Program-made: the position numbers and the translations under genes
Part shown: in pieces, positions 4,096-60,660 of the stretch
Position numbering within the stretch: the first letter of the stretch is position 1
How the letters are laid out: each line of letters begins with the position of its first letter
Assembly (NCBI GenBank): GCA_965213765.1
Contig: OZ243926.1
Coordinates: forward strand, 2,626,971 to 2,690,970
DNA from: Rhodospirillales bacterium
Lineage (GTDB): Bacteria > Pseudomonadota > Alphaproteobacteria > Rhodospirillales > UBA2165
DNA: 64,000 nucleotides
Reading direction: 5' to 3'
Notes under the pieces: model-generated
What the model saw: only the letters and a program-made list of their open reading frames with translations
Database searches by the model: none
Told to the model about the DNA's origin: nothing

Positions 4096-5376
4096 GTGAC
4101 CGCAACCTCTCTTATTGACCGGCTTTTTCAGCGTCACCCCAGGGTGATCGATCTCTCCCTGGACCGGATTCAGCTCCTGCTCGATAGGCTGGATCACCCG
4201 GAACGCAAGCTGCCGCCGGTGGTCCATGTGGCCGGCACCAACGGAAAGGGCTCGGTAATCGCCTTCCTGCGCGCGTTCGCCGAAGCCGCCGGTCTCAAAG
4301 TTCACGTTTACACCTCACCTCACCTGATACGCTTCAATGAACGAATTCGTATTGCCGGAAACTTGATTTCCGACAATCGGCTGCTGGAGTTGCTGGAAGA
4401 GTGCGAATCCGCGGCGGGTGACGACCCCATCACTTTTTTTGAGATAACCACCGCCGTCGCCTACCTCGCATTTTCAAGGACATCTGCGGACCTGGCGCTC
4501 ATCGAAACCGGTCTCGGCGGCCGTCTGGATGCGACGAATGTCCTCGACGCGCCTGCCGTGACGGCGTTGACCCCGATCTCTCTGGATCATCAGCGGTATT
4601 TGGGAAATGAGCTGACCGGGATTGCCGGTGAGAAAGCCGCCATCATGAGGCCCGACGTGCCGTGCATCGTTGCCCGGCAGCCGGCTGAAGCGATGCCGGT
4701 CATAAAGAAAAAGGCGGACGAAATCGGCGCCGACTTATTGGTTTCGGGGCGGGATTGGTCCGTCGAGCGGGAACGGGCCCGGATGGCCGTCAGAACACCG
4801 GGCAAACTCCGGGACTTGCCGGTCCCCATGCTCGCCGGCGACCACCAGATCGAGAATGCCGCCCAGGCAATCGCGTGCCTCGATTCACTTGGCGGAGTCT
4901 CGATTCCCGACGCCGCCGTCACCAAGGGCCTCAACGGCGTCGACTGGCCCGGCCGCCTCCAACGGCTGACAAAAGGGCCGCTCCTGGACGACCTCCCGCC
5001 GGGGTGGGAAATCTGGGTGGACGGGGGGCATAACGGCGGCGCCGGAATCGTCTTGGCCCGACAGGCGGCGCGCTGGAAAGACCGTCCGCTGGCGCTGATG
5101 GTCGGCATGCTGAAGTCCAAGGATCCGCGGGTATTTCTCGAATCGCTCGCGCCCCATACTCAACTCACCGTGGCGTTGAAAATTCCCGGCGAAGACGGCG
5201 CCTGGTCCTCCGAAGACTTGGCCAAGCAGGCAACGGCAGCCGGTATGACCGCGCTCGAATCCGGCGGACCTCATCCGGCCGCACAAAGAATTCTATCCCG
5301 CCTGGATCGCCCGGGCAGAATCCTGATTTGCGGATCACTCTATCTGGCGGGTGAAATCCTCAAGACTCACACCTGA
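4096..5376 (+). CDS. folC: bifunctional folylpolyglutamate synthase / dihydrofolate synthase
   Basis: GTG start. VHVAGTNGKGS P-loop and Mur-ligase-like body, and it lies downstream of the trp genes as in many Alphaproteobacteria. Confidence 0.85.
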   Translation: MTATSLIDRLFQRHPRVIDLSLDRIQLLLDRLDHPERKLPPVVHVAGTNGKGSVIAFLRAFAEAAGLKVHVYTSPHLIRFNERIRIAGNLISDNRLLELLEECESAAGDDPITFFEITTAVAYLAFSRTSADLALIETGLGGRLDATNVLDAPAVTALTPISLDHQRYLGNELTGIAGEKAAIMRPDVPCIVARQPAEAMPVIKKKADEIGADLLVSGRDWSVERERARMAVRTPGKLRDLPVPMLAGDHQIENAAQAIACLDSLGGVSIPDAAVTKGLNGVDWPGRLQRLTKGPLLDDLPPGWEIWVDGGHNGGAGIVLARQAARWKDRPLALMVGMLKSKDPRVFLESLAPHTQLTVALKIPGEDGAWSSEDLAKQATAAGMTALESGGPHPAAQRILSRLDRPGRILICGSLYLAGEILKTHT

Positions 5377-5391
5377 ACCGGCGGGTACTTA

Positions 5392-5570
5392 GGTCCGGAC
5401 TCAATTGAGCCGCCATAGGAGTGTTGCGGCGCTGCGGACGGCGCGGCACAAGGTCCCTCGCCCCCGTCAGGGGGAGAGGGATGCGGAGGGTTGGCGAGGC
5501 GAACGCCAAGCCTACCCGGCGCCGGGTGAGGGGGAGTTTCGGTCGGTCCGCTCGTCCCCTCCCGGGGGAC
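5392..5570 (+). repeat. GTCCGGAC-TIR mosaic element, copy R2 (left TIR plus hairpin module; right end not recognisable)
   Basis: TA (5390-5391) is followed by ggtccggactcaattgagccgccataggagtgttgcggcg and the ccctcgcccccgtcagggggagagggatgcggagggttggcgaggcgaacgccaagcctacccgg module. The right boundary is approximate. Confidence 0.7.
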
Positions 5571-5663
5571 CGAGGAGCGCCATCGAAGGCCGGGTTCCTT
5601 CGCGTCGCGGCCGAATTCCCGTCTTCGCGCACGAACCGCCCCGCTCATTCATCTCAGGTCCCA

Positions 5664-5691
5664 AGCAAAACCCCGCCACTGGGACGGGGTC
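5664..5691 (-). terminator. putative intrinsic terminator downstream of trxA
   Basis: The minus strand reads ACCCCGTCCCAGTGGCGGGGTTTTG, a GC stem (CCCCG/CGGGG) followed by a T run, about 30 nt after the trxA stop. Confidence 0.55.
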
Positions 5692-5717
5692 TCGATGAAT
5701 GGCGGACGCAATCGGCT

Positions 5718-6035
5718 TCAGATGACCGATTCGACCCATTCCATGAGCTTGCTCTTGGGCAGCGCGCCAACTTTCATGGACGCGACCTCACCGTCCTTGA
5801 AAAGCATCAACGTCGGAATTCCGCGTACGCCGTATTTGGAGGGCGTCTCCGGATTGTCGTCGATATTCACCTTGGCAATCGTGAGTTTGTCGCCAAGTTC
5901 GGTACCGATTTCGTCGAGGGACGGGGCGATCTGTTTACAGGGACCGCACCACTCGGCCCAGAAATCCACCAACACGGGGCCGGATGCTTGAAGCACATCC
6001 GAGTCGAACGACGAATCGCTTACGTCTTTGGCCAT
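5718..6035 (-). CDS. trxA: thioredoxin
   Basis: WAEWCGPCK active site and a product of about 105 aa. The start is set at the second ATG (MAKDVSDS) with AGGA upstream. Confidence 0.95.
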
Positions 6036-6126
6036 AACATTTTTCCTTTCCAATGCCGCACAGCGATGCCGCTCGCGAGGGATATTGTGGATGAGGAAGC
6101 CAATCTATGTGCGGCCCGGATGCCCG

Positions 6127-9100
6127 TCAAGGGACGTACCGGTCCGTAAGTTCCCCGGGGATTTCCATAATGATCGGGCCGTCGGTCCAAAGCAGGACGC
6201 ACGCGATTTCGCGGTCCGCATAGATTTCGGCAACCACGGAACGGTAGATCGCCAACTGCCGCAAATAGGCCGGGGGCACATCCTCCGGCGACCGGGGCGG
6301 CGGCCGATTGGTTTTGTAATCGACAATCGTGACCTTTTCCCTGTCGACCAGAATGCGGTCGATCTGACCGGAGACGGCCTGATCACCGACGAGGCCGACA
6401 ATCGGCACCTCGGCCCGCGATCCTTTGCCAAACAGCGGGGCCGCAACCGGATCTTCCATGACCGCCAAGGTCTCGCGGGCAATTTGTTCCCGGTCCGCCC
6501 GCTCGAGGTCTTGTGCGGCGCCGGACAAATACGCCGCGGCGGCGTCGGGCCGTGATTCCCCGGGAAGGTCCGGCAGTGTCTGAAGAAGGTTGTGGATCAA
6601 CAGCCCACGGCGAAATCGCTCCGAATTATCTTGCCCGAGTGGAGACCGAACCGGCGGATCGTCATCCGCCGGCCGCGACGGGCTGAGCGGTCGAGGCAGA
6701 GGGGCTTCCGGCGCCGGCGGCTCGTCTGCCCAACTCGGCAACGGTATCGAAGCGAGCTCTTGCGGGTCCGAGGTCTTCCCGACTTCCCTGGTTTGAGGCG
6801 CCGCAAGACGGAAAATCTTCTTGGCCGGCCCACCATCCCATTCGGCGAGAATCGGATCATCGACAGCCTCGGCAAGCGGCTCGAGCGCTTGACTGATCAA
6901 CTCGTACCAATTGCCCTCGGGCGCCTTGGTCTTGGTCTCCCAGCCGCAGATGTAGAGCCGGTCTTCCGCCCGCGTCATGGCGACGTAGAGCAGCCGCCGA
7001 TATTCCCGCTGCTGGGCAACGCGGTCTTTTTCCGCCAGCCGGTCGCCGACGGCCTCGCGAAATGCCCGGCGCGGCGGCCACAGCAAGAACGCCGCGCCGT
7101 CCTCATCCCGGCTGCCCCACAGCAGGCCGGCCCCCTGACGCGGCACCTGCATTGTATCCGGCAGAAATACGATTGGCGCTTGCAAGCCCTTGGCGCCGTG
7201 AACCGTCATGATCCGAACCGCGCCGCCGCGGCCCTGGTCCAAATCCCGCTTTACCTCAACCGCGCCGGCCTCCATCCATTGCAGAAATCCCTGAAGCGAC
7301 GGGGTGTGGCTTCGTTCGAAAGCCAGTGCCAGGTTCAGAAATTCAGTAAGAGGATCAATCGCCTCGGGCCCTAGCCGGGCAAGCAAACGGCGGCGTCCGC
7401 CCCGTGCGCCAAGGATGCCGGCAAACAGCTCATAGGGGGGCAGGTAATCGGCGGCGGCAAGCACGTCCCGCAGAAATTCGTGGGCGGCGGCAAATCTCGG
7501 ACTGGACTCCCGGCGGGCCTGGAGTTCCGACCACAAGCTTCCTTCCCGGTTATAGGCGAGTTCGAACAGGTCCTCTTCGGTCAGGCCTACAATCGGGCTC
7601 TTGAACACCGTCGCCAGCGTGAGGTCGTCCTCGGGAAACAGCAGAAACCGGCCCAGCGCCAACAGATCCATGACCGCGATGTGCTCGGTGAGCACCAATC
7701 GGTCGACACCCGCGACGTCGATGTCCAACGCCTTGAGCGCGCGCACCAGATCATCCACGAATACGCCGCGGCGCCTGACCAAAACCATGATGTCGCCGGC
7801 GGCGATCGGACGGCCCGCGGATTCGAGCACCTCGCCATCGTTGATCATCCGGGAAATGCGGGCGGCGATGATGGCCGCAAGCCGGGCCTGCGGCGTTCCG
7901 CCCCCGATCCGCTCAACCGGCGGTTTCCAGGTCTCGGTCTCATCCGACTCCAGCGGCGGAACGGGCGGCCACAGTTCCACGAGGCCGCCATCTCCCTCGC
8001 GGGCCGCCTCGTGCACAATTGGGCGATCATCCAGCGCCACGCCGTCCCGGGCCGGGACCTGTTCAAATACGGCGTCCACGGCGCGAAGGACCGGTCCGAC
8101 GGACCGGAAGGAAATATTCAGATCCACGTCCAACCATTGACCGCCGGCGCCGGGGACCGTCCGGGCCAGCCGATCCCGTACCGCGGTGAAGTTTTCCGGC
8201 GCGGCGCCCTGGAAACTGTAAATCGACTGCTTGACGTCACCGACCGCGAACATGGTGCGGTTCAGGTCGCGGGCCCCCTCACCGGCAAAGAATTCCCCGA
8301 CAATCGAATCGACGACGGACCACTGATCCGGGCTGGTATCCTGAGCCTCGTCGATCAGGACATGATCGAGACCGCCGTCGAGCTTGTAGAGCACCCATGA
8401 CGAGATGCCGGAACGCGCGAAAAGCCGCCCGGCATCGAGAATCAAGTCTTCATAGTCGAGGAGCGCCCGGGACCGCTTTTCCCGCTGATAAGTATCGATG
8501 AGAGTCCGTGAAATCACCGTCAGCGCCCGGGTCGCGCTTGCCGTCGCCGCCGCCCGGCTCTTAAGGACGAACCGAGCCAGCCGTTCGGCCTCGGCCTCGA
8601 GGATATCCTCGGCGCCGGGCGCGGCTGCCGCGGTCGCTTTGTTGATTAGGCGTTTCGCCTGCCTAACAACGCCGTCTCTATGGTCCCGGGTCAAGAAATA
8701 GTCGAGGTACGGCGTTAGCCCGGTGATCCGTCCGATCCGGTCCGCATCCAGCCAGCGGGAAAGCATCCTGCCTTTCTGGGCTTCGGACTCCGTGCCCTGT
8801 TGAAGTGCTTCCGCCGCCATTCTCAGGCCAAGCTGATCGAAGGCCGCGTCACCGACCGCTTGTTCGGTCAGGCTCGATATCGTGTCACCGGGCGCCAGAC
8901 CGAGCGCATCGCGGACGATATCGCTCAAGGGCACGGGCCCTCCCGCCTGATCCAACATCCGGCGCAGCCGTCCCCGCTGATTTGCCAACGTCGAAATCAG
9001 ACCCGGAAATTCGAACTCATAGACATGTTTGGTTATTTCGGCGAGGGCATCCGTCAGTTCGGGGTCCCGGGCCTGTTGCGCTTCGCGCAGAATATGCGCC

Positions 9101-30302: not shown

Positions 30303-30489
30303 TTGCCGGTCTCCTGCTGGGCGGATGTCGATTACGCCCCATAAATAGTCTTCGGATTGAATTATTCCACGTCAAATCCGGCAATTCGATAAAATTTGCC
30401 GTGAGTTACGAAATTGTAATCTGCCGGAAAGGCCGCCTGTTCTTCCACCCTATCGCAACCGACCGGCATGAGGACGGCGGACTGAATGC

Positions 30490-30645
30490 CGTAGCCGGGT
30501 GAGGAGGAGTTTCCGTATCACCCTCACCCCGACCCTCTCCCTCAGAGAGGGAGAGGGAGTAGTCGCCGTTGCCGCATCGTGTCCCCTCGCCCCCGTCAGG
30601 GGGAGAGGGCGCAAAAAGGAGAATCCCCTAATCGGGTCCGGACCC
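30490..30645 (+). repeat. GTCCGGAC-TIR mosaic element, copy R5 (right half: HP2, hairpin, right TIR)
   Basis: Collinear with the right half of R4. It ends ..aaaaaggagaatcccctaatcgggtccggaccc, followed by TA that forms part of the polA stop codon. The left boundary is approximate. Confidence 0.75.
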
Positions 30646-33866: not shown

Positions 33867-34901
33867 ATGGGCGCGCGGCCGGCCGGATACGTCGTGGTTG
33901 CGGTTCTCCTGCTCGGCGCGTGCGCCCCCCGGTTCGTCCCGCCGGGTCCGCCGCGGGATGAACCGCGGCTGACGGAAAGCCATGCGGTCATGGCGGACGG
34001 CGCCCAACTGCCGCTCCGGTCCTGGCCGGTGAAAGGCGACGGGCGGGCGGTCCTGCTGGCGCTCCACGGGTTCAACGACCACGGCGAGTTCATCGACGCG
34101 GCCGCCGGGCATTTCGGCAAAGCGGGCATCAAGGTCTACGCCTACGACCAGCGCGGTTTCGGGAATGCGCCCGCGCGCGGCCGATGGGCGGGGATCGCGG
34201 CCCTGACCGACGACCTTCGGACGGTCGCCGGACTGCTGCGCCGGCGCCATGCCGACTTACCGCTATTCGTCCTCGGCCCGAGCATGGGGGGCGCCGTAAT
34301 CATGGCGGCGCAGGCCGAAAAACCGATCCCCGGGGTAAAGGGAGCCATTCTGGCCGGCCCCGCCGTTTGGGGGCGCGCCACGATGCCGTTTTACCAGCGC
34401 TGGGCCCTGTGGCTCAGCGCCCACACGGTCCCGTGGCTCACGCTCACCGGGCGCGGGATAAGCCGCAATCCGTCCGACAACAAGGAGATGCTTCGAGCCC
34501 TGGGGCGCGACCCGCTGGTCATAAAGGAAACCCGGATCGACGCCATTTACGGGTTGGCCGGCCTGATGGATCGCGCGTTCGCCTCGGCGCCCGGCTATCG
34601 GGCGCCGGCGCTGCTTCTCTACGGCGACAACGACGACATTATTCCGAACGAGGCGATGGAGCGCGTCTTCGAGCGGCTGCCGGAATCCGCCTCGGCGGTG
34701 CAGAGGATCGTACGCTACCCGGACGGCTATCATATGCTGCTGCGTGATCTGCAGGCGGAAACCGTGTGGAAGGATATCGTGGCCTGGATGGCCGATCCGG
34801 CCGCCGGCCTGCCCTCCGGTTTGGGCGCGCCGCCCCGGCGCTTTACGGCCCCAGGCGCTTCGGGTAATGTGCGCGCCCTCCACGACATTGGGCGCCCGTA
34901 G
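33867..34901 (+). CDS. alpha/beta hydrolase (lysophospholipase/monoglyceride-lipase-like), probable lipoprotein
   Basis: Lipobox-like LLLGAC, the patterns ..[10 protein letters not shown].. and ..GPSMGG.. (nucleophile elbow), and C-terminal ..GYHMLL... The last 10 nt, including the TAG, overlap the tRNA. Confidence 0.75.
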
Positions 34902-34968
34902 CTCAGCTGGATAGAGTGTCGGCCTCCGAAGCCGAAGGTCACAGGTTCGAATCCTGTCGGGCGCGCCA
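34892..34968 (+). tRNA. tRNA-Arg (anticodon CCG)
   Basis: Manual fold: acceptor GCGCCCG/CGGGCGC, D-arm GCTC..GAGT, anticodon stem TCGGC/GCCGA with loop CTCCGAA, T-arm ACAGG-TTCGAAT-CCTGT, discriminator G, and an encoded CCA. Confidence 0.9.
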
Positions 34969-35350
34969 TTCCTTTCAATGGGTTGGAGCTTACGTCCTAC
35001 GGCGCCATTTATCGCCTGCCGCACGCTGGCCGTTAGGGTTGGACAACGGCAATAAATGACGCCCAAGCATCGTTTTTATCCCCATTGACCTTTGAGCAAA
35101 ATGGTTCCCAATCGAGGCTAGTCTGTTCCTCAAATGCATCAGAGAGATTGTCCAAAGCTGTGCTTACTCTGTCACAGGCAAGGTACGGCGTAAACGCAGG
35201 CTAGAGAAAGAGCTGGTAGCTTAGATTCAATAATTGGGGACGGTCCCAAGTTCGAGATCGTATGATTGGATTATTGGGACGCCTCTTCGGTTTTTTCCGG
35301 CAGGTATCCCACTTCCTCCCAATCTTCGGAACTGGGCCCGACGTGCTGCA

Positions 35351-36304
35351 TTAGATAGCCTCGTTTGCAAATCCCCTTAGCGACCGCCATCTTGTGATTC
35401 CGAATTTGGAGAGCGTCCGAAGAATCTCTGTCCTAGTACCGATCGACACATTTCTGTTTTGTTTTCCGAGAATTTCGGAGACCCCCCAGCCGAACCTATT
35501 GCTTCGCTGGAGTTGGACTACGGCCTCTTCTCTCCCATGCCAGACGTAATAGTAGCTATTGCCCTCTAGCACCCATTTGATTTCAGAATTTAGGCAGTTT
35601 CGGAAGCGTCGGGAAGCGGCATCCATCTCTTGGCCAGATTCCAAGGGTACTAATTCTGACGTCCCTGCCCAAGGAGGTGGCGGAAACGACGCGCGGCTGA
35701 TCAGCCGATCTAACCAGTCGGCCAAGTCAAATCCGTCAGATTTAGAGGCTTTCTTTAATGAGGCCTCCAGCTCATCATCAGTCAACTCGGGCCGTAATTC
35801 TCTGATCGATTTGACTGCCAAATTAAAAGTTTCATTGAAAGCTTCGATGCTCCCAGGTTTTACAGAGCGAATCGTATCGTAAGGGAGTTGGATTTGTGTG
35901 TCGCTAGTTGCGAGCAGCTTAATTAGGTTAGGCGAAATTGACGCCGCGTGTCGCAGATATTTGGAAGTCTTGTGATCGTGCAGCAATGAGAGTAGCTCAA
36001 GATAGCGCGCCCCGGCGCAGGGTCTCCTTCCCATTTTTCCGAGCGCGGTGATTGTCCCCGAAGGACAACTTCCGCATATGAGTCGAATTACGGATTGGCG
36101 CTTACCCGAGCGAAGCAGTCGGCCAAGCTCGGCCCACTCTTCCATCCACTTCTCTTGTTGCTCGGCATGCGCCACAATCAGGCATACATAGTGAAGGCCT
36201 GGTCGGCCCAGCCCCACCAGGAAATCGGCAAATTGGGGATCGGCGTCACAAATTTTTTTCAGTGTGACGCTCAATCCACCAAATTGCGTTAGAACGGCGC
36301 TCAT
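35351..36304 (-). CDS. hypothetical protein (317 aa); the C-terminal ~90 aa resemble a PcfJ-like module
   Basis: The ATG overlaps the upstream stop (ATGA). No recognisable catalytic motif. The C-terminus ..LVPLESGQEMDAASRRFRNCLNSEIKWVLEGNSYYYVW..VVQLQ..WGVSEILGKQNRNVS.. matches the remembered PcfJ pattern (EG..M.HCV..G...T.E...Q.RG.N) only loosely. Confidence 0.6.
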   Translation of the reverse strand: MSAVLTQFGGLSVTLKKICDADPQFADFLVGLGRPGLHYVCLIVAHAEQQEKWMEEWAELGRLLRSGKRQSVIRLICGSCPSGTITALGKMGRRPCAGARYLELLSLLHDHKTSKYLRHAASISPNLIKLLATSDTQIQLPYDTIRSVKPGSIEAFNETFNLAVKSIRELRPELTDDELEASLKKASKSDGFDLADWLDRLISRASFPPPPWAGTSELVPLESGQEMDAASRRFRNCLNSEIKWVLEGNSYYYVWHGREEAVVQLQRSNRFGWGVSEILGKQNRNVSIGTRTEILRTLSKFGITRWRSLRGFANEAI

Positions 36305-36786
36305 TTCTTATCCAACACTGCGCGGAATGCATCCCGCGTCTCTTGAGTAAGTTCGACTTTCCAATCTTTCAGTGTTTCACCATCGTCGCCGTAAATGCCC
36401 TCTTCGTCCCAATCAATCAGATAGCTGTCAGGGTTTCCTGTGATTGTGCGAGTCCGCCGCGTTATTCCGGACCACAGGGTGTGATGGACTTTGTCCACAT
36501 CGACATTGAGTTCAGCAGCGACATCTTTCAGGCGGAAAAAACGATCCGGCCCTCTAGTGGCCGCGTTTAGCGCGGCACGTGTCTTCGGACTACACCCCTT
36601 CAGAAAGTCCCGGGCATTTGCCTCAGAAAACTTGACGAAATTTTCGTCTCCTTGAGGCTGCTTGCTGGGGTGTGACAATGTCTCTTCGTTGTTGGTTCCG
36701 ACCTCACTCAGCAAGTTGATCACCTTCATGCTCTGGTCCGCCGAAAGCCCCTCGATAAGCATGCTAAAGCGAATTTCTTCACTCAC
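36301..36786 (-). CDS. hypothetical acidic protein (161 aa), possible HTH-containing partner
   Basis: GTG start with AAGGAG 6 nt upstream. The central segment ..FFRLKDVAAELNVDVDKVHHTLWSGITRRTR.. looks like a helix-turn-helix or winged helix. I recognised no family. Confidence 0.55.
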   Translation of the reverse strand: MSEEIRFSMLIEGLSADQSMKVINLLSEVGTNNEETLSHPSKQPQGDENFVKFSEANARDFLKGCSPKTRAALNAATRGPDRFFRLKDVAAELNVDVDKVHHTLWSGITRRTRTITGNPDSYLIDWDEEGIYGDDGETLKDWKVELTQETRDAFRAVLDKK

Positions 36787-36821
36787 AATTCTCTCCTTGA
36801 TGCTGAAAGTTGATTCACCGC

Positions 36822-36851
36822 ATCATAGGCTAAATTCTGGAGAGAAGTCAA
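36822..36851 (-). promoter_or_regulatory. sigma70-like promoter candidate for the islet operon
   Basis: The minus strand reads TTGACT, an 18-nt spacer, then TATGAT. The -10 element lies about 35 nt upstream of the GTG at 36786. Confidence 0.45.
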
Positions 36852-36926
36852 TTATAAACACAGTGAAATATGATGAAATATTGTTATTCACCATTCTTTC
36901 ATCCATAGCGAACGGCGGAACCAGGC

Positions 36927-38444
36927 TCAACCCAGTTTCCGCTCCATGGCCTCGCAAAGCCGCGTCAGCACCTCGAGGCGCCCATGCCTCTTGTCGTTAA
37001 ACGGCACCAACTGCCAGGGCGCCGCCGCCGTGCTAGTCCGGGTGACCATCTCGTTCACCGCCGCCTCGTACTCGCTCCAACGGTCGCGGTTGCGCCAGTC
37101 CTCGTCGGTCAGCTTCCAGGCCTTGTACGGCGTCTCGGCCCGGCTCTGGAACCGCCGGGCCTGTTCATCGGGATCGATGTGAAGCCAGAACTTCATCAAC
37201 AGGGTCCCGTGCTCGACGATCTGATTCTCGAATTCCCGGATTTCCCGGAACGCCCTGCTCCACTCCGGTTCGGACGCGAAACCCTCGACCCGCTCCACCA
37301 TGACCCGCCCGTACCAACTCCGGTCGAATATGGCGAATTTGCCGTCGCGGGGAATTCGCTGCCAAAACCGCCACAGGTAATGATGCGACTTCTCCCAGTC
37401 ATTGGGGGCCGCAAAGGGATGGATGCGGTAATCGCGGGCGTCCAGCGCCGCCGTGATGCGCCGGATGGTCCCGCCCTTGCCGGCGGCATCCCAGCCCTCG
37501 AACACCAGCACCGACGCCATCTCTTGATTTTTTGCGCGCTGGTAAAGCTCGTTCAGGCGGCGGCGGAGGTTCGGCAGCTTCTCGCCGTAGACCGGTTTAT
37601 CCACCGAGGCGCTCAGATCCACCTGTGCCAGGGGCGGCCGCGAATTCGGGCCGCCGTAGGCATATGCCGTTCCGGCGCCGTTTTCGGCGGCGTTTTCGGC
37701 GGCCGAAGGCAGAACGGCCGGGTGCGGCCGGGCCCGGGCGGCCAGGTGATCGTTGATTGCCTGGCGGACCGTCCGGAGAACCACCAGGGATCTGTATCTG
37801 GCATCGCCGCCGTCGACCAGTCTCCACGGCGCGTAGGGCGCATCGGTTTGTTCGATTATCCTTTCGGCGACGTCGATGAAGCGGTCATAGTTCTCCCAAT
37901 TCCGCCAGTCCTGTTTGCTCACCTTCCAGTGCTGGGCGGCCTGCTTCTCCAATTTCCTGAGCCGGCGTTTCTGCTGGCCCTTGTCCAGGTGCATCCAGAA
38001 TTTGAGAACAAGGGCCCCGTCGTCGGCGAGGCACCGCTCGAATTCCTTGATGCGGGCGAGGCCGCGCTCGAATTTTCGTTTGTTGAGACGGCCGTAGACC
38101 CTGTCCACGAGGGGCTGCGAATACCACGCGCTGAGGTAGACGCCGATCTGGCCCTTGGGCGGGATATCGACCCAGTACCGCCAAAATTCGGGACGGGATT
38201 TCTCGCGCCGGGTCCGGGGCCCGTAGGCGCGGGTGACGATCCAGCGCGGGTCCATCCATTCATTGAGCAGGCCCGCGAGCTCGCTTTTGCCGGCGCCGTC
38301 GACACCGCCGAATATGATCAGGACGGGACAATCGGCTTTTCTGAGTGCCTGTTGGGTCAGGATCAGCGACGTGCGGAGTTCCGACGCGACCGCGTTAAAC
38401 TCCGCCTTGCCGACCGGTTCCCCACGCTCAATTTGATCGAACAC
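36927..38444 (-). CDS. two-domain PPK2-family polyphosphate:AMP/ADP phosphotransferase
   Basis: Two PPK2 repeats, ..VLIIFGGVDGAGKSE.. and ..VLVFEGWDAAGKGGTI.., each followed by ..FDRSWY-type motifs. 505 aa. Confidence 0.85.
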   Translation of the reverse strand: MFDQIERGEPVGKAEFNAVASELRTSLILTQQALRKADCPVLIIFGGVDGAGKSELAGLLNEWMDPRWIVTRAYGPRTRREKSRPEFWRYWVDIPPKGQIGVYLSAWYSQPLVDRVYGRLNKRKFERGLARIKEFERCLADDGALVLKFWMHLDKGQQKRRLRKLEKQAAQHWKVSKQDWRNWENYDRFIDVAERIIEQTDAPYAPWRLVDGGDARYRSLVVLRTVRQAINDHLAARARPHPAVLPSAAENAAENGAGTAYAYGGPNSRPPLAQVDLSASVDKPVYGEKLPNLRRRLNELYQRAKNQEMASVLVFEGWDAAGKGGTIRRITAALDARDYRIHPFAAPNDWEKSHHYLWRFWQRIPRDGKFAIFDRSWYGRVMVERVEGFASEPEWSRAFREIREFENQIVEHGTLLMKFWLHIDPDEQARRFQSRAETPYKAWKLTDEDWRNRDRWSEYEAAVNEMVTRTSTAAAPWQLVPFNDKRHGRLEVLTRLCEAMERKLG

Positions 38445-38502: not shown

Positions 38503-38583
38503 CCGGGCCCACCGGACCGGCTTCGCCGGCCGGAGGACGAACCGCGTCCCGGTCATTATCACCCTCACCCCGGCCCTCTCCCT
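38503..38583 (+). repeat. mosaic element fragment R6 (left part of an element split by IS5)
   Basis: ccaccggaccggcttcgccggccggaggac.. is shared with R1 and R4, followed by ..caccctcaccccggccctctccc (left arm of HP2). It is interrupted at about 38583. Confidence 0.7.
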
Positions 38584-39757
38584 GAGGATTCTTCTGCGAA
38601 AGTCGCAAGGAGGGGTTTGTGTCGGGGGTTGGGGCTGTTTTGGTACCGGGCGGCGGGTTTGCCGCGGCGTTTGCGGGCCGGATTGCGGTGCGTTTTGCGG
38701 TTTCCGGGCGCGTCGCGCCCTCACGGCCCGGCGAGCAGGCAGGCCCGGCGCATGTTGTAGACGGCGGCGGCGGCGAAGAGGCGGGCCGTGTTCCTGTCCC
38801 GGGACCGGCTCTTGGCGCGGCGCAGCCCGTAGAAGCGCTTGAGGGCGGAGAACACGGCCTCGACCGGGGCGCGCCGTCGCGCGATCAGAGCGTTGCGGCG
38901 CTGTTGCCAATGGGGCAGCGCGGCTATGTGCTTGTGCCGCCGGTGCATGATCCGGTCCTTGATCCCCGCCGCCTTGAGCCGCGCCCGTCTCGCCGCCTGC
39001 TCGTAGGCCTTGTCGCCATAGACCGCGGCCTCGTCGCCGCAGATCAGCCGGTCGGCGACCTCGCTCTCGGAGGTCTTGGCCGAGGTCAGCACCACCCGCC
39101 GGATCAGCCCCGACCCCTGGTCGACGCCGAGATGCGCCTTGTAGCCGAAGAAGGCGCGCCCCTTCTTGCGGGTCCAGTCGGCGCCGGGCTCGCCCGCGTG
39201 CCCGGCACCCGCGCCGGCCTTGTAGGGCGGCGGGCGCGAGGCCGCGGCCACCAGCGTGGCGTCCATCAGCGTGCCCTTGCGCACGATCAGACCGGTGGCC
39301 TCCAACTGGCGGTTGATCTCCTCGAAGGCCGCCTCCAGAACCCCGCCCGCATCCCCGCGAAAGCGGCAGATCGTGGTCTCGTCCGGCGTGCCCCCGTCAA
39401 GCGCAAAGCCGCAAAAACGCCGGAACGACAGACGGTCCAGCAGCGCCTCCTCCAGACCGGGGTCCGACAGATCGTAAAGCACCTGAAGATAAAGCGCCTT
39501 CAACATCGACAGCGGCGCATAGGGCGGACGGCCCCGGCGCCCCGGGCGGACCGCCGACGCCAGGCGCTCCAGCGGAGACCAGTCGATCAACGCATCCAGA
39601 CGATCAAGCTTCCGGTTCGACCCAAGACCCGGAGAAACAAACGCTTCCGCAAACCCCAGCTGACCCTTGCCGCTCATCGACGCCTCCAACAGTTGATAAC
39701 CACACTGAATCACATCACAAACCCATTGAGAATCCCCTTTTCGCAGAAGAATCCTCA
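38584..39757 (-). mobile_element. IS5-family insertion sequence
   Basis: The terminal inverted repeats are ..gaggattcttctgcgaaa (38584-38601) and tttcgcagaagaatcctc.. (39739-39756). There is one transposase ORF. The exact ends and target duplication are ambiguous because the host hairpin arms extend the inverted symmetry. Confidence 0.8.
38721..39677 (-). CDS. IS5-family (DDE) transposase
   Basis: MSGKGQLGFAEAFV..NRKLDRLDALIDW..PPYAPLSMLKALYLQVLYDLSDPGLEEALLDRLSFRRFCGF.. is a typical IS5-group N-terminus, with ..VYGDKAY.. in the DDE region. The start is at the internal ATG. Confidence 0.9.
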   Translation of the reverse strand: MSGKGQLGFAEAFVSPGLGSNRKLDRLDALIDWSPLERLASAVRPGRRGRPPYAPLSMLKALYLQVLYDLSDPGLEEALLDRLSFRRFCGFALDGGTPDETTICRFRGDAGGVLEAAFEEINRQLEATGLIVRKGTLMDATLVAAASRPPPYKAGAGAGHAGEPGADWTRKKGRAFFGYKAHLGVDQGSGLIRRVVLTSAKTSESEVADRLICGDEAAVYGDKAYEQAARRARLKAAGIKDRIMHRRHKHIAALPHWQQRRNALIARRRAPVEAVFSALKRFYGLRRAKSRSRDRNTARLFAAAAVYNMRRACLLAGP

Positions 39758-40003
39758 GGGAGGGAGAGGGAGTCGAACGGAATTCCCTCGCCCCTTCGGG
39801 GGGAGAGGGATCGGTCTTTCTTTTTGCACCCTCGCCCCCTTCGGGGGAGAGGGATGCGGAGGCTTGGCGAGCCTGCGAGCCATAGCCGTAGCTGGGTGAG
39901 GGGGAATTTCCATATCACCCTCACCCTCATTCCCGCCCTCACCCCGGCCCTCTCCCGGAGGGAGAGGGAGTCGAGCGGAAATCCCCTAATCGGGTCCGTT
40001 CCC
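39758..40003 (+). repeat. mosaic element R7 (right part of the IS5-split element, with right TIR)
   Basis: It resumes with the gggagggagaggg right arm of HP2 and contains hairpin modules. It ends cccctaatcgggtccgttccc, followed by TA that forms part of the acyl-CoA dehydrogenase stop codon. Confidence 0.75.
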
Positions 40004-41309: not shown

Positions 41310-41630
41310 GCGGCGTACGGCGCGGCACAAGGTCCCTCGCCCCCTTCCGGGGGGAGAGGGACCGGTCTTTCTTTTTGCACCCTCGCCCCCTTTCAGGGGG
41401 AGAGGGATGCGGAGGGTTGGCGAGGCGAACGCCGAGCCTACCCGGCGCTGGGTGAGGGGGCGAGCCTGCGAGCCATAGCCGTAGCTGGGTGAGGGGGAAT
41501 TCCGTATCGCCCTCACCCTCACTCCCACCCTCACCCCGGCCCTCTCCCGGAGGGAGAGGGAGTTTCGGTGGGTCCCCTCGCCCCTTCCCGGGGGAGAGGG
41601 GCAGGGTGAGAGGGCGCAGCGTACGGCGCA
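41310..41630 (+). repeat. mosaic element array R8 (internal hairpin modules, no TIR)
   Basis: ggcacaaggtccctcgcccc..ggggagaggg, gatcggtctttctttttgcaccctcgccccc.., HP1, a duplicated gtgaggggg module, and HP2. Boundaries are approximate. Confidence 0.7.
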
Positions 41631-60242: not shown

Positions 60243-60634
<392 letters not shown>

Positions 60635-60660
60635 TTTTCGCCAATCCCAACGGACGCAGC

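Follow-up and report, generated by a model that had tools for sequence, protein, structure and literature searches.

The window analysed here (64,000 nt of contig OZ243926.1 in assembly GCA_965213765.1, positions 2,626,971 to 2,690,970 of the forward strand, from a Rhodospirillales bacterium) contains a short low-GC islet between a tRNA-Arg gene and a PPK2 gene. The only intact genes in it are two overlapping genes, here named A and B. From its sequence relatives and its modelled structure, B appears to be a divergent, shortened member of the PcfJ superfamily with an Asn-Cys pair in place of the His-Cys pair of PcfJ. At roughly even odds (a probability of about 0.5), we read A–B as a core, still under selection, that has outlasted the decay of a mobile element once integrated beside tRNA-Arg and is probably engaged in element–host conflict. 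That B is PcfJ-like and that the islet is a mobile element remnant is, taken jointly, highly probable, and a conflict function of the module with A acting as the partner of B is a more tentative proposition, at slightly less than an even chance. Loci of relatives are labelled L001 and so on and proteins P0015 and so on; coordinates without a label are those of the window, which serves as the reference stretch.

A and B are on the minus strand, with A upstream (Table 1). Their open reading frames (ORFs), their overlap and the AAGGAG ahead of A had been described in an earlier note on this DNA, made by a model from the letters and an ORF list, and all were found as claimed. At the junction, GATAAGAAATGAGCGCC, the TGA stop codon of A and the ATG of B share 4 nt (ATGA), and the corresponding overlap in the L001 lineage is 1 nt. 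The start of A falls in the same aligned column in five relatives, as GTG, ATG or TTG, and an AGGAG-like ribosome-binding site is kept at an equal position. Because both are conserved across five related loci, the start assignment is sound. The promoter-like TTGACT-18 nt-TATGAT upstream of A is likewise present, and L002 keeps the TTGACT but has TTTGAT as the second hexamer. As 1.4 such sites are expected by chance in the scanned region, this site by itself argues only weakly for a promoter. The acidic character of A and of its C-terminal tail was also borne out, the last 42 residues having an isoelectric point (pI) of 4.2. Neither ORF is a chance one. Both genes are intact in the six syntenic relatives for which DNA was read (L001–L004, L018 and L019), including B of L003, which had been omitted by the gene caller.

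The C-terminal block of B had been likened to the PcfJ domain of conjugative plasmids and phages, with NC in place of HC, and a check against the PcfJ profile, PF14284, had been proposed. That check gave no direct match: hmmscan of B against Pfam-A returned no family at E ≤ 10, and the gathering score of PF14284 (25 bits) is not reached. We nonetheless assign B to the PcfJ superfamily, because of a transitive link through the relative P0066, a match to an annotated Marinomonas protein, matches of the predicted fold and an alignment of conserved motifs. When a profile of five close B sequences was used in an exhaustive HMMER search, 1160 cluster representatives (clusters at 50% identity) were returned at E ≤ 1e-3, 393 of them at E ≤ 1e-10, and PF14284 is matched by 6/64 aligned members of the B family. 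P0066 matches the B profile over essentially its full length (residues 15–311; E = 1.5e-24), and its residues 221–315 score 31.8 bits on PF14284, for which the cut-off is 25. Through P0066, residues ~197–291 of B fall on PcfJ profile positions 55–146. An independent link is given by a Marinomonas plasmid, which encodes a protein annotated as having a PcfJ domain. Residues 204–294 of B match this protein (E = 5e-4 by tblastn; E = 1.8e-14 with the B hidden Markov model, HMM), and it scores 33.8 bits on PF14284 itself. A word-index protein search with the 64-sequence B alignment returned 7 proteins.

An AlphaFold2 model of B built from 64 diverse sequences has a predicted local distance difference test score (pLDDT) of 94.0 and a predicted template modelling score (pTM) of 0.82; with the five close sequences alone, the pLDDT was 46.7. 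The predicted structure comprises a 13-helix N-terminal domain (residues ~1–205) and a C-terminal alpha/beta PcfJ-like domain (~197–300). A search of BFVD with this model gave 11 matches at E ≤ 0.001 with probabilities of 0.98–1.0, and most of the named ones are phage PcfJ-like proteins. A search of PDB with the model returned nothing significant and no solved structure of the family. Residues C237, G248 and G280-x-x-N283 of B align with the PcfJ proteins of the Enterococcus faecalis plasmid pCF10, the Streptococcus phage Clyde and Marinomonas. The two motif segments are RRFRNCLNS and EILGKQNRNVS in B, QRMRHCVSS and QIKGHHNTEP in the Marinomonas protein, and SILRHCVGS and QIQGKCNRQEVP in PcfJ of pCF10. 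The His of the PcfJ His-Cys dyad is replaced in B by Asn (N236), which is invariant in 64/64 members of the subfamily. The likeness drawn in the earlier note, with NC in place of HC, was therefore right. P220, C237 and W273 are also invariant across these 64 sequences, and K90, Y101, H119, W197, P208, P211, Y253, G280 and N283 are nearly so. The CGSC motif that had been pointed out in the N-terminal region does exist but is not a motif of the family: of the residues in that stretch, P81 and G83 alone are conserved, and a metal-binding role for CGSC was rejected on this ground.

B and PcfJ have the following in common: a predicted fold match, an intermediate-sequence link, an association with mobile elements, and a C-terminal alpha/beta domain with the series ...[H/N]-C...(E/Q)G...G-x-x-N-R... 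in equal order and spacing. The Marinomonas PcfJ also shares with B an upstream FP-x-PPW-x-G...L-x-P motif. B differs in being shorter (317 aa, compared with about 450–540 aa) and in lacking the first ~130 residues, in having Asn where PcfJ has His beside the invariant Cys, and in escaping PF14284. It is also fixed at one chromosomal site in its clade, unlike the PcfJ proteins of plasmids and phages (E. faecalis pCF10; Bacillus, Enterococcus and Streptococcus phages). Of the phage records in the collection searched, 208 are matched by the canonical PcfJ. When phage and plasmid records were searched by tblastn with B, P0016, P0066 and P0074, no phage record and two weak partial plasmid matches were returned, and scans of viral contigs with A and two B relatives gave nothing useful.

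Separately, the N-terminal helical region of the B family (profile positions 15–115, residues ~1–95 of B) weakly matches Haemophilus influenzae HI1480 (PDB 1MW5, E = 0.0078). 1MW5 is not among the 50 PDB Foldseek matches listed for B.

The overlapping arrangement of A and B also has a counterpart. In pCF10, PcfJ overlaps by 10 nt an upstream gene whose annotation reads Cas9 inhibitor, AcrIIA9 family, and which has a PcfK domain (71.5 bits). This pair is ~0.9 kb beyond the relaxase gene, and ssb and a thermonuclease-family gene are found elsewhere on the plasmid. In phage Clyde the early module, with RecT, an exonuclease and a Holliday-junction resolvase, also contains a PcfK of 152 aa (36.8 bits) and a PcfJ, the genes for which share 4 nt. 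Thus, in these pairs as here (where the overlap is 4 nt), a small upstream gene (152–258 aa) overlaps a PcfJ-type gene that runs in the same direction. The pairs differ in that A has no similarity to PcfK detectable in Pfam or by hhalign and is confined to one clade, whereas PcfK occurs widely. Of the proteins considered, AcrIIA9, whose family is that of PcfK, is the only one with documented anti-CRISPR activity; none is documented for PcfJ or A (PMC6739104). Because PcfK–PcfJ already has the layout of a small upstream gene overlapping a larger one, the description of A–B as a candidate undescribed accessory system was too strong. A–B is a variant of the uncharacterised PcfJ kind and not a categorically new system.

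On the Marinomonas algicola plasmid (NZ_CP061942.1; L007 7068–9649), the 540-aa PcfJ-domain protein gene overlaps a downstream gene for a tubulin/FtsZ-family GTPase (PF00091, E = 3.9e-32), and a type I restriction-modification (HsdR/HsdS) cluster lies ~2.9 kb upstream of the pair. The pairing is an unusual one.

A mobile or defence-related setting, as the earlier note had expected, was found around distant relatives of B. L009 and L012 each encode a 191-aa tyrosine recombinase consisting of the catalytic domain alone (L009 5275–5850 and L012 1472–2047; 66% identical), divergent from the B-like gene. An integrase and an AlpA-type regulator, WYL/WCX regulators and a Cas4-like nuclease also occur beside distant relatives. 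L013 and L014 have a second PcfJ-like paralogue, and in L013 the two paralogues (1946–2887 and 5041–6360) flank a WYL/WCX regulator.

A is an orphan protein. No significant match was found when it was compared with Pfam, PHROGs, NCBIfam, PADLOC, PDB sequences and viral contigs, so the statement that neither A nor B carries a known nuclease, ATPase, toxin or defence model agrees with the library scans. An HMM of A matches in syntenic loci alone, and all A homologues whose loci were read (L001–L005, L018 and L019) are in the same syntenic slot beside B. A and B always occur together in the clade that has them, and A is, as far as these searches go, a small acidic orphan specific to a narrow alphaproteobacterial lineage. 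The central stretch that had been described as HTH-like (helix-turn-helix) does collect winged-HTH or excisionase-type matches (residues ~67–128; E 0.03–0.16), all below threshold: PF21531 at E = 0.088 (13.2 bits against a cut-off of 27.1 bits), phrog_66 at E = 0.16 and, among members of the A alignment (A2), WH_MCM3_C at E = 0.029 and PrtN at E = 0.15. The DNA-binding HTH of A is accordingly no more than putative.

Two A homologues have altered structures. In P0009 (L003 9234–9821), ~36 residues of A are duplicated internally. P0015 (479 aa, on a 27.6 kb contig) was considered as a true A–B fusion of the Rosetta stone type and rejected, as it is an A that is frameshifted after residue ~109 and reads through into an intact B. 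The frameshift could reflect either a pseudogene or an assembly error.

The islet extends from the 3' end of the tRNA-Arg gene to the stop codon of PPK2, and its foreign composition and tRNA adjacency, both noted before, were confirmed. Overall, the islet has ~50% GC and its surroundings have ~63–70%. GC content is 0.49–0.54 across 35000–36999, compared with 0.58–0.73 in most flanking windows, and GC at third codon positions is 0.54–0.57 in A and B and 0.81–0.84 in the flanking PPK2 and hydrolase genes. The tRNA-Arg gene likewise borders the islet in L002, L003 and L004. The gene order is acyl-CoA dehydrogenase, PPK2, A, B, variable genes, tRNA-Arg, hydrolase and PolA in every instance for which DNA was read. 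No integrase ORF is present in the islet and no direct repeat of the tRNA-Arg 3' end was found within 34800–37200. Because the islet has foreign GC and tRNA adjacency but neither integrase nor repeat, it is at best a decayed remnant of a tRNA-integrated element. Close homologues are very rare, with 5 clusters for B and 7 for A in a search of 5.8 billion proteins, and a single species representative in GTDB, an uncultured Rhodospirillaceae metagenome-assembled genome, carries the A–B locus.

The claim that A and B are the only cargo is correct for intact genes but not historically, as relics of two further genes, C and D, lie between B and the tRNA gene. Comparison with L004 by blastn revealed that 35376–35200 corresponds to L004 7177–7353 (89% identity) and 35167–34883 to L004 8050–8344 (83% identity), and that L004 6704–7176 and 7354–8049 are absent from the window. 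The relic of C encodes KGICKRGYLMQHVGPSSEDWEEVGYLPEKTEEASQ*, corresponding to the L004 C-terminus ...GIYKRGYLMRYVGPSSEDWVEAGILPEQSEEASH*, and runs across the new 3' end of B in a different reading frame. The relic of D, ...WEPFCSKVNGDKNDAWASFIAVVQP*, agrees with the C-terminus of D in L004. The first of the two deletion junctions replaced the last ~10 residues of B, which are now unlike those of all relatives and make up a tail that is modelled with low confidence.

In relatives, C is a 126-aa protein without a family match and D is a protein of 205–209 aa with a D...E-x-K motif. Intact D weakly matches PADLOC Tin (D of L004 only; E = 9.3e-5, 19.9 bits) and, over the D..EIK stretch, Pfam HSDR_N_2 (E = 0.24), and it is possibly a nuclease of the PD-(D/E)xK type. 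The fullest islets, in L004 and L018, hold A, B, C and D, and L018 adds a DEDD (RNase_T) exonuclease. In L003 the D homologue is on the opposite strand (26% identity, E = 1e-8), in L002 the slot contains an unrelated 244-aa protein with a D...E-x-K motif, and in L001 it contains insertion sequence (IS) and methylase fragments, with IS insertions in the islet. The slot genes are at L004 7555–8184, L003 10789–11595 (minus), L002 11612–12346, and L018 2449–3066 and 3234–3755. The space between B and the tRNA gene is, in relatives, a site for variable cargo in which D proteins diverge fast, and the islet of the window is a deletion derivative of a four- or five-gene islet. A–B stayed intact in the window while C and D underwent deletion, and since both are deleted, A–B would function without them.

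Islets adjacent to tRNA genes, and defence hotspots, can combine core genes with variable nuclease cargo, as in the hotspots of P2-like prophages that carry tin and old. The A–B islet resembles these in its foreign GC, its position at a tRNA 3' end and its variable slot genes. It differs in that there is no integrase, att repeats or phage genes, the match to Tin is weak and the variable gene has been deleted from the window.

Signs of selection were found in both genes. The ratio of non-synonymous to synonymous substitution rates (dN/dS) is 0.21–0.34 for B and about 0.06–0.35 for codons 47–161 of A. Both genes are thus under purifying selection, in keeping with a pair that is still functional, although the first 47 codons of A are hypervariable. 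Between the deeper lineages, the synonymous rate (dS) of B is 0.33–0.47, and that of the core genes flanking the islet is 0.15–0.34. A has two anciently diverged allele types, one in the window, L002 and L018 and the other in L001, L003 and L004, and the region upstream of A shows the same split. Between the types, dS is saturated and dN/dS is 0.06–0.08 over codons 47–161. This mosaic pattern is like that of an immunity or specificity region.

When the window was compared with L002, the segment from the C-terminal two-thirds of A to codon 305 of B was found to be 99–100% identical (35400–36600 and L002 10200–11400), with a dS of 0.009, whereas PPK2 and the hydrolase gene on either side have diverged (dS 0.134 and 0.085, respectively). 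The low dS between diverged flanks suggests recent recombination, spread or sweep, and together with the two allele types it points to recombination and mosaicism at the A–B locus. Most of the differences that do separate the two loci in A and codons 1–305 of B (22/30; binomial p = 3e-16) fall in codons 1–47 of A, where 20 are non-synonymous and 2 synonymous, compared with 2 and 2 in codons 1–305 of B. The skew recurs in comparisons with L018 (19:2 and 16:3), and by Fisher's test it differs from the rest of the operon for L018 and the window (p = 0.009) and for L002 and L018 (p = 0.04). These figures suggest, though not conclusively, diversifying selection on the N-terminal segment of A. Mutagenesis of this tip by a diversity-generating retroelement (DGR) was considered and dropped, as on inspection the substitutions do not look adenine-specific and no DGR reverse transcriptase is nearby; L001 does have a reverse transcriptase, but one of the kind found in group II introns.

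A mechanism can be proposed in which a single transcript, from the promoter-like site upstream of A, would yield A and B together. Acidic A would bind, regulate or direct basic B. B, by way of its invariant Asn-Cys pocket, would act on a competing phage or plasmid or on a host defence, its target there being a nucleic acid or a protein. The fast-evolving N-terminus of A might then meet a changing opponent. The module would serve in conflict between mobile element and host, either in exclusion or defence, or in an anti-defence role that the host has since retained. The islet once also held C, the variable nuclease-like D and, in one relative, the DEDD exonuclease.

Several results weigh against this reading. 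B has no significant match in Pfam, PADLOC, PHROGs or NCBIfam (for Pfam and PADLOC, to E ≤ 10), the TM-scores of its model to the BFVD models are low (0.22–0.30), and hhalign of the B-family alignment against the single PcfJ of pCF10 was weak (probability 0.3), though the equivalent motif was picked. For A, neither a profile search of PDB nor hhalign against an AlpA protein and against an excisionase gave a match to an HTH. A also has no match to PF14058 (PcfK) at E ≤ 10, whereas the PcfK controls do match it (pCF10 71.5 bits, Clyde 36.8 bits), and hhalign of A against these two gave probabilities of 0.19 and 0.14, respectively. No A-like neighbour was found beside the distant B relatives, so A is not intrinsic to the B family, and A and B do not form a conserved pair outside their own clade. 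The N-terminal skew in A is modest (binomial p = 0.12 against neutrality for the window and L002) and is absent from the other allele type. All A–B loci examined share one syntenic chromosomal site, which is also what a gene pair domesticated for a host function would show. Finally, our literature searches returned no biochemical function for PcfJ, and the conflict role of A–B is consequently argued by association.

The same evidence bears on other explanations. A–B could be a module for DNA metabolism or element maintenance, in which A is a winged-HTH autoregulator and B is a PcfJ-type factor for replication, recombination or establishment, left over from an early region and kept for host DNA transactions. 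The surroundings of PcfK–PcfJ in Clyde and, with the nearby relaxase and the ssb and thermonuclease-family genes, in pCF10 are in its favour, as are the basic character of B, the clustering of several sub-threshold winged-HTH or excisionase matches on one segment of A and the weak match of the N-terminal helices of the B family to HI1480. However, we consider this unlikely, as no HTH match of A is above threshold, the direct comparisons with AlpA and excisionase were negative, no replication or recombination genes are left in the islet and PcfJ has no demonstrated DNA activity. A hypervariable N-terminus would also be unexpected in a simple autoregulator.

Nor does an addiction pair seem probable, in which acidic A would neutralise a basic B whose C-terminal topology may be GNAT-like (compare TacT and AtaT), such that loss of the pair is harmful. 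The layout is like that of a type II toxin–antitoxin system, in that the upstream gene is small and encodes an acidic protein, the downstream gene is larger and encodes a basic one, and the two overlap by 4 nt, and A–B did persist through the loss of C and D. In the AlphaFold2 model the order of secondary structure elements in residues 218–316 of B is beta-alpha-alpha-beta-beta-beta-alpha-beta-alpha, which resembles the core topology of GNAT, and about half of the top 50 PDB Foldseek matches of B are GNAT acetyltransferases. These are all below threshold, however (E > 1, probability ≤ 0.51), and Q/RxxGxG/A, the motif by which GNAT proteins bind their cofactor, does not occur as such in B. Neither protein matches a toxin, antitoxin or acetyltransferase family, and A–B lacks the combination of GNAT toxin and ribbon-helix-helix (RHH/DUF1778) antitoxin that marks the TacAT and AtaRT type. 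The distant relatives of B directly follow divergent promoters and have no partner gene ahead of them, so B-type proteins are tolerated alone, and P0015 has a broken A with an intact B, although this could be an assembly error. The remaining explanation, that the islet is decaying junk whose ORFs are merely not yet disrupted, draws on the two deletions in this genome, the IS insertions in L001, the absence of integrase and att repeats, and the swapped C-terminal tail of B at the deletion junction. We regard it as very improbable given that both ORFs are intact in six relatives and have dN/dS below 1 by a wide margin along most of each ORF, that the start position and ribosome-binding site are conserved and that the overlap is maintained in two different forms. 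The near identity from the C-terminal part of A through B (dS 0.009) between diverged flanks (dS 0.085–0.134) also suggests spread or sweep rather than decay.

A bolder form of the conflict reading, which we think doubtful, would make A–B an undescribed two-component conflict module. The PcfJ domain would be a conserved engine with interchangeable, translationally coupled partners, PcfK/AcrIIA9 in the plasmids and phages of Firmicutes and A here. Residues 1–47 of A, under positive selection, would serve to recognise a rapidly changing phage or defence target or act as a decoy for it, the clade would keep the module for exclusion or defence after decay of the element, and the whole PcfJ family would be a class of Cys-dependent defence or anti-defence effectors.

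PcfJ occurs in many phages and on conjugative plasmids and, in the two cases examined (pCF10 and Clyde), is coupled to PcfK of an anti-CRISPR family. What is new here is a large, previously unrecognised outlying subfamily of short Asn-Cys proteins (~1160 clusters) that is missed by the Pfam model, together with a confident structure model for B and a short list of invariant residues, and the finding of a chromosomal PcfJ-type gene that selection maintains alongside another, fast-evolving kind of coupled partner. If the pair acts in conflict with phages or plasmids, it would offer a handle on the function of the whole PcfJ family; if it has no such role, it would be an ordinary mobile element remnant.

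Table 1. Features of the A–B islet and its tRNA border (window coordinates)
Feature	Position	Strand	Details
tRNA-Arg (anticodon CCG)	34892..34968	plus	ARAGORN; Rfam RF00005, 71.6 bits; 3' end forms one border of the islet
Low-GC islet	34969..36926		tRNA-Arg 3' end to PPK2 stop codon
Relic of gene D (last ~45 codons)	35033..35167	minus	blastn against L004
Relic of gene C (last 35 codons and stop)	35271..35378	minus	blastn against L004; overlaps new 3' end of B in another frame
Gene B	35351..36304	minus	317 aa, ATG start; basic, pI 9.1; ORF list
Gene A	36301..36786	minus	161 aa, GTG start; acidic, pI 5.0; orphan protein; ORF list
Hypervariable N-terminal segment of A (codons 1–47)	36646..36786	minus	Window compared with L002 and L018
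Shine-Dalgarno AAGGAG	36793..36798	minus	6 nt 5' of the GTG of A; read from sequence
Promoter-like TTGACT-18 nt-TATGAT upstream of A	36822..36851	minus	Scan, 10/12 matches

Other features were seen elsewhere in the window. An IS-like element at 38567–39773 contains a 330-aa ORF (38721–39713, minus) that is DDE transposase-like by look alone and is bracketed by 35-nt inverted repeats at 38567–38601 and 39739–39773. GC-rich intergenic repeats resembling repetitive extragenic palindromic (REP) elements, with the palindromic unit CCCTCTCCC...GGGAGAGGG, are present at 30488–30574, 38529–38601, 39739–39985 and 41342–41577, and copies flank several genes near the islet. The class A bacterial RNase P RNA is at 60246–60635 (Rfam RF00010, 327.5 bits).

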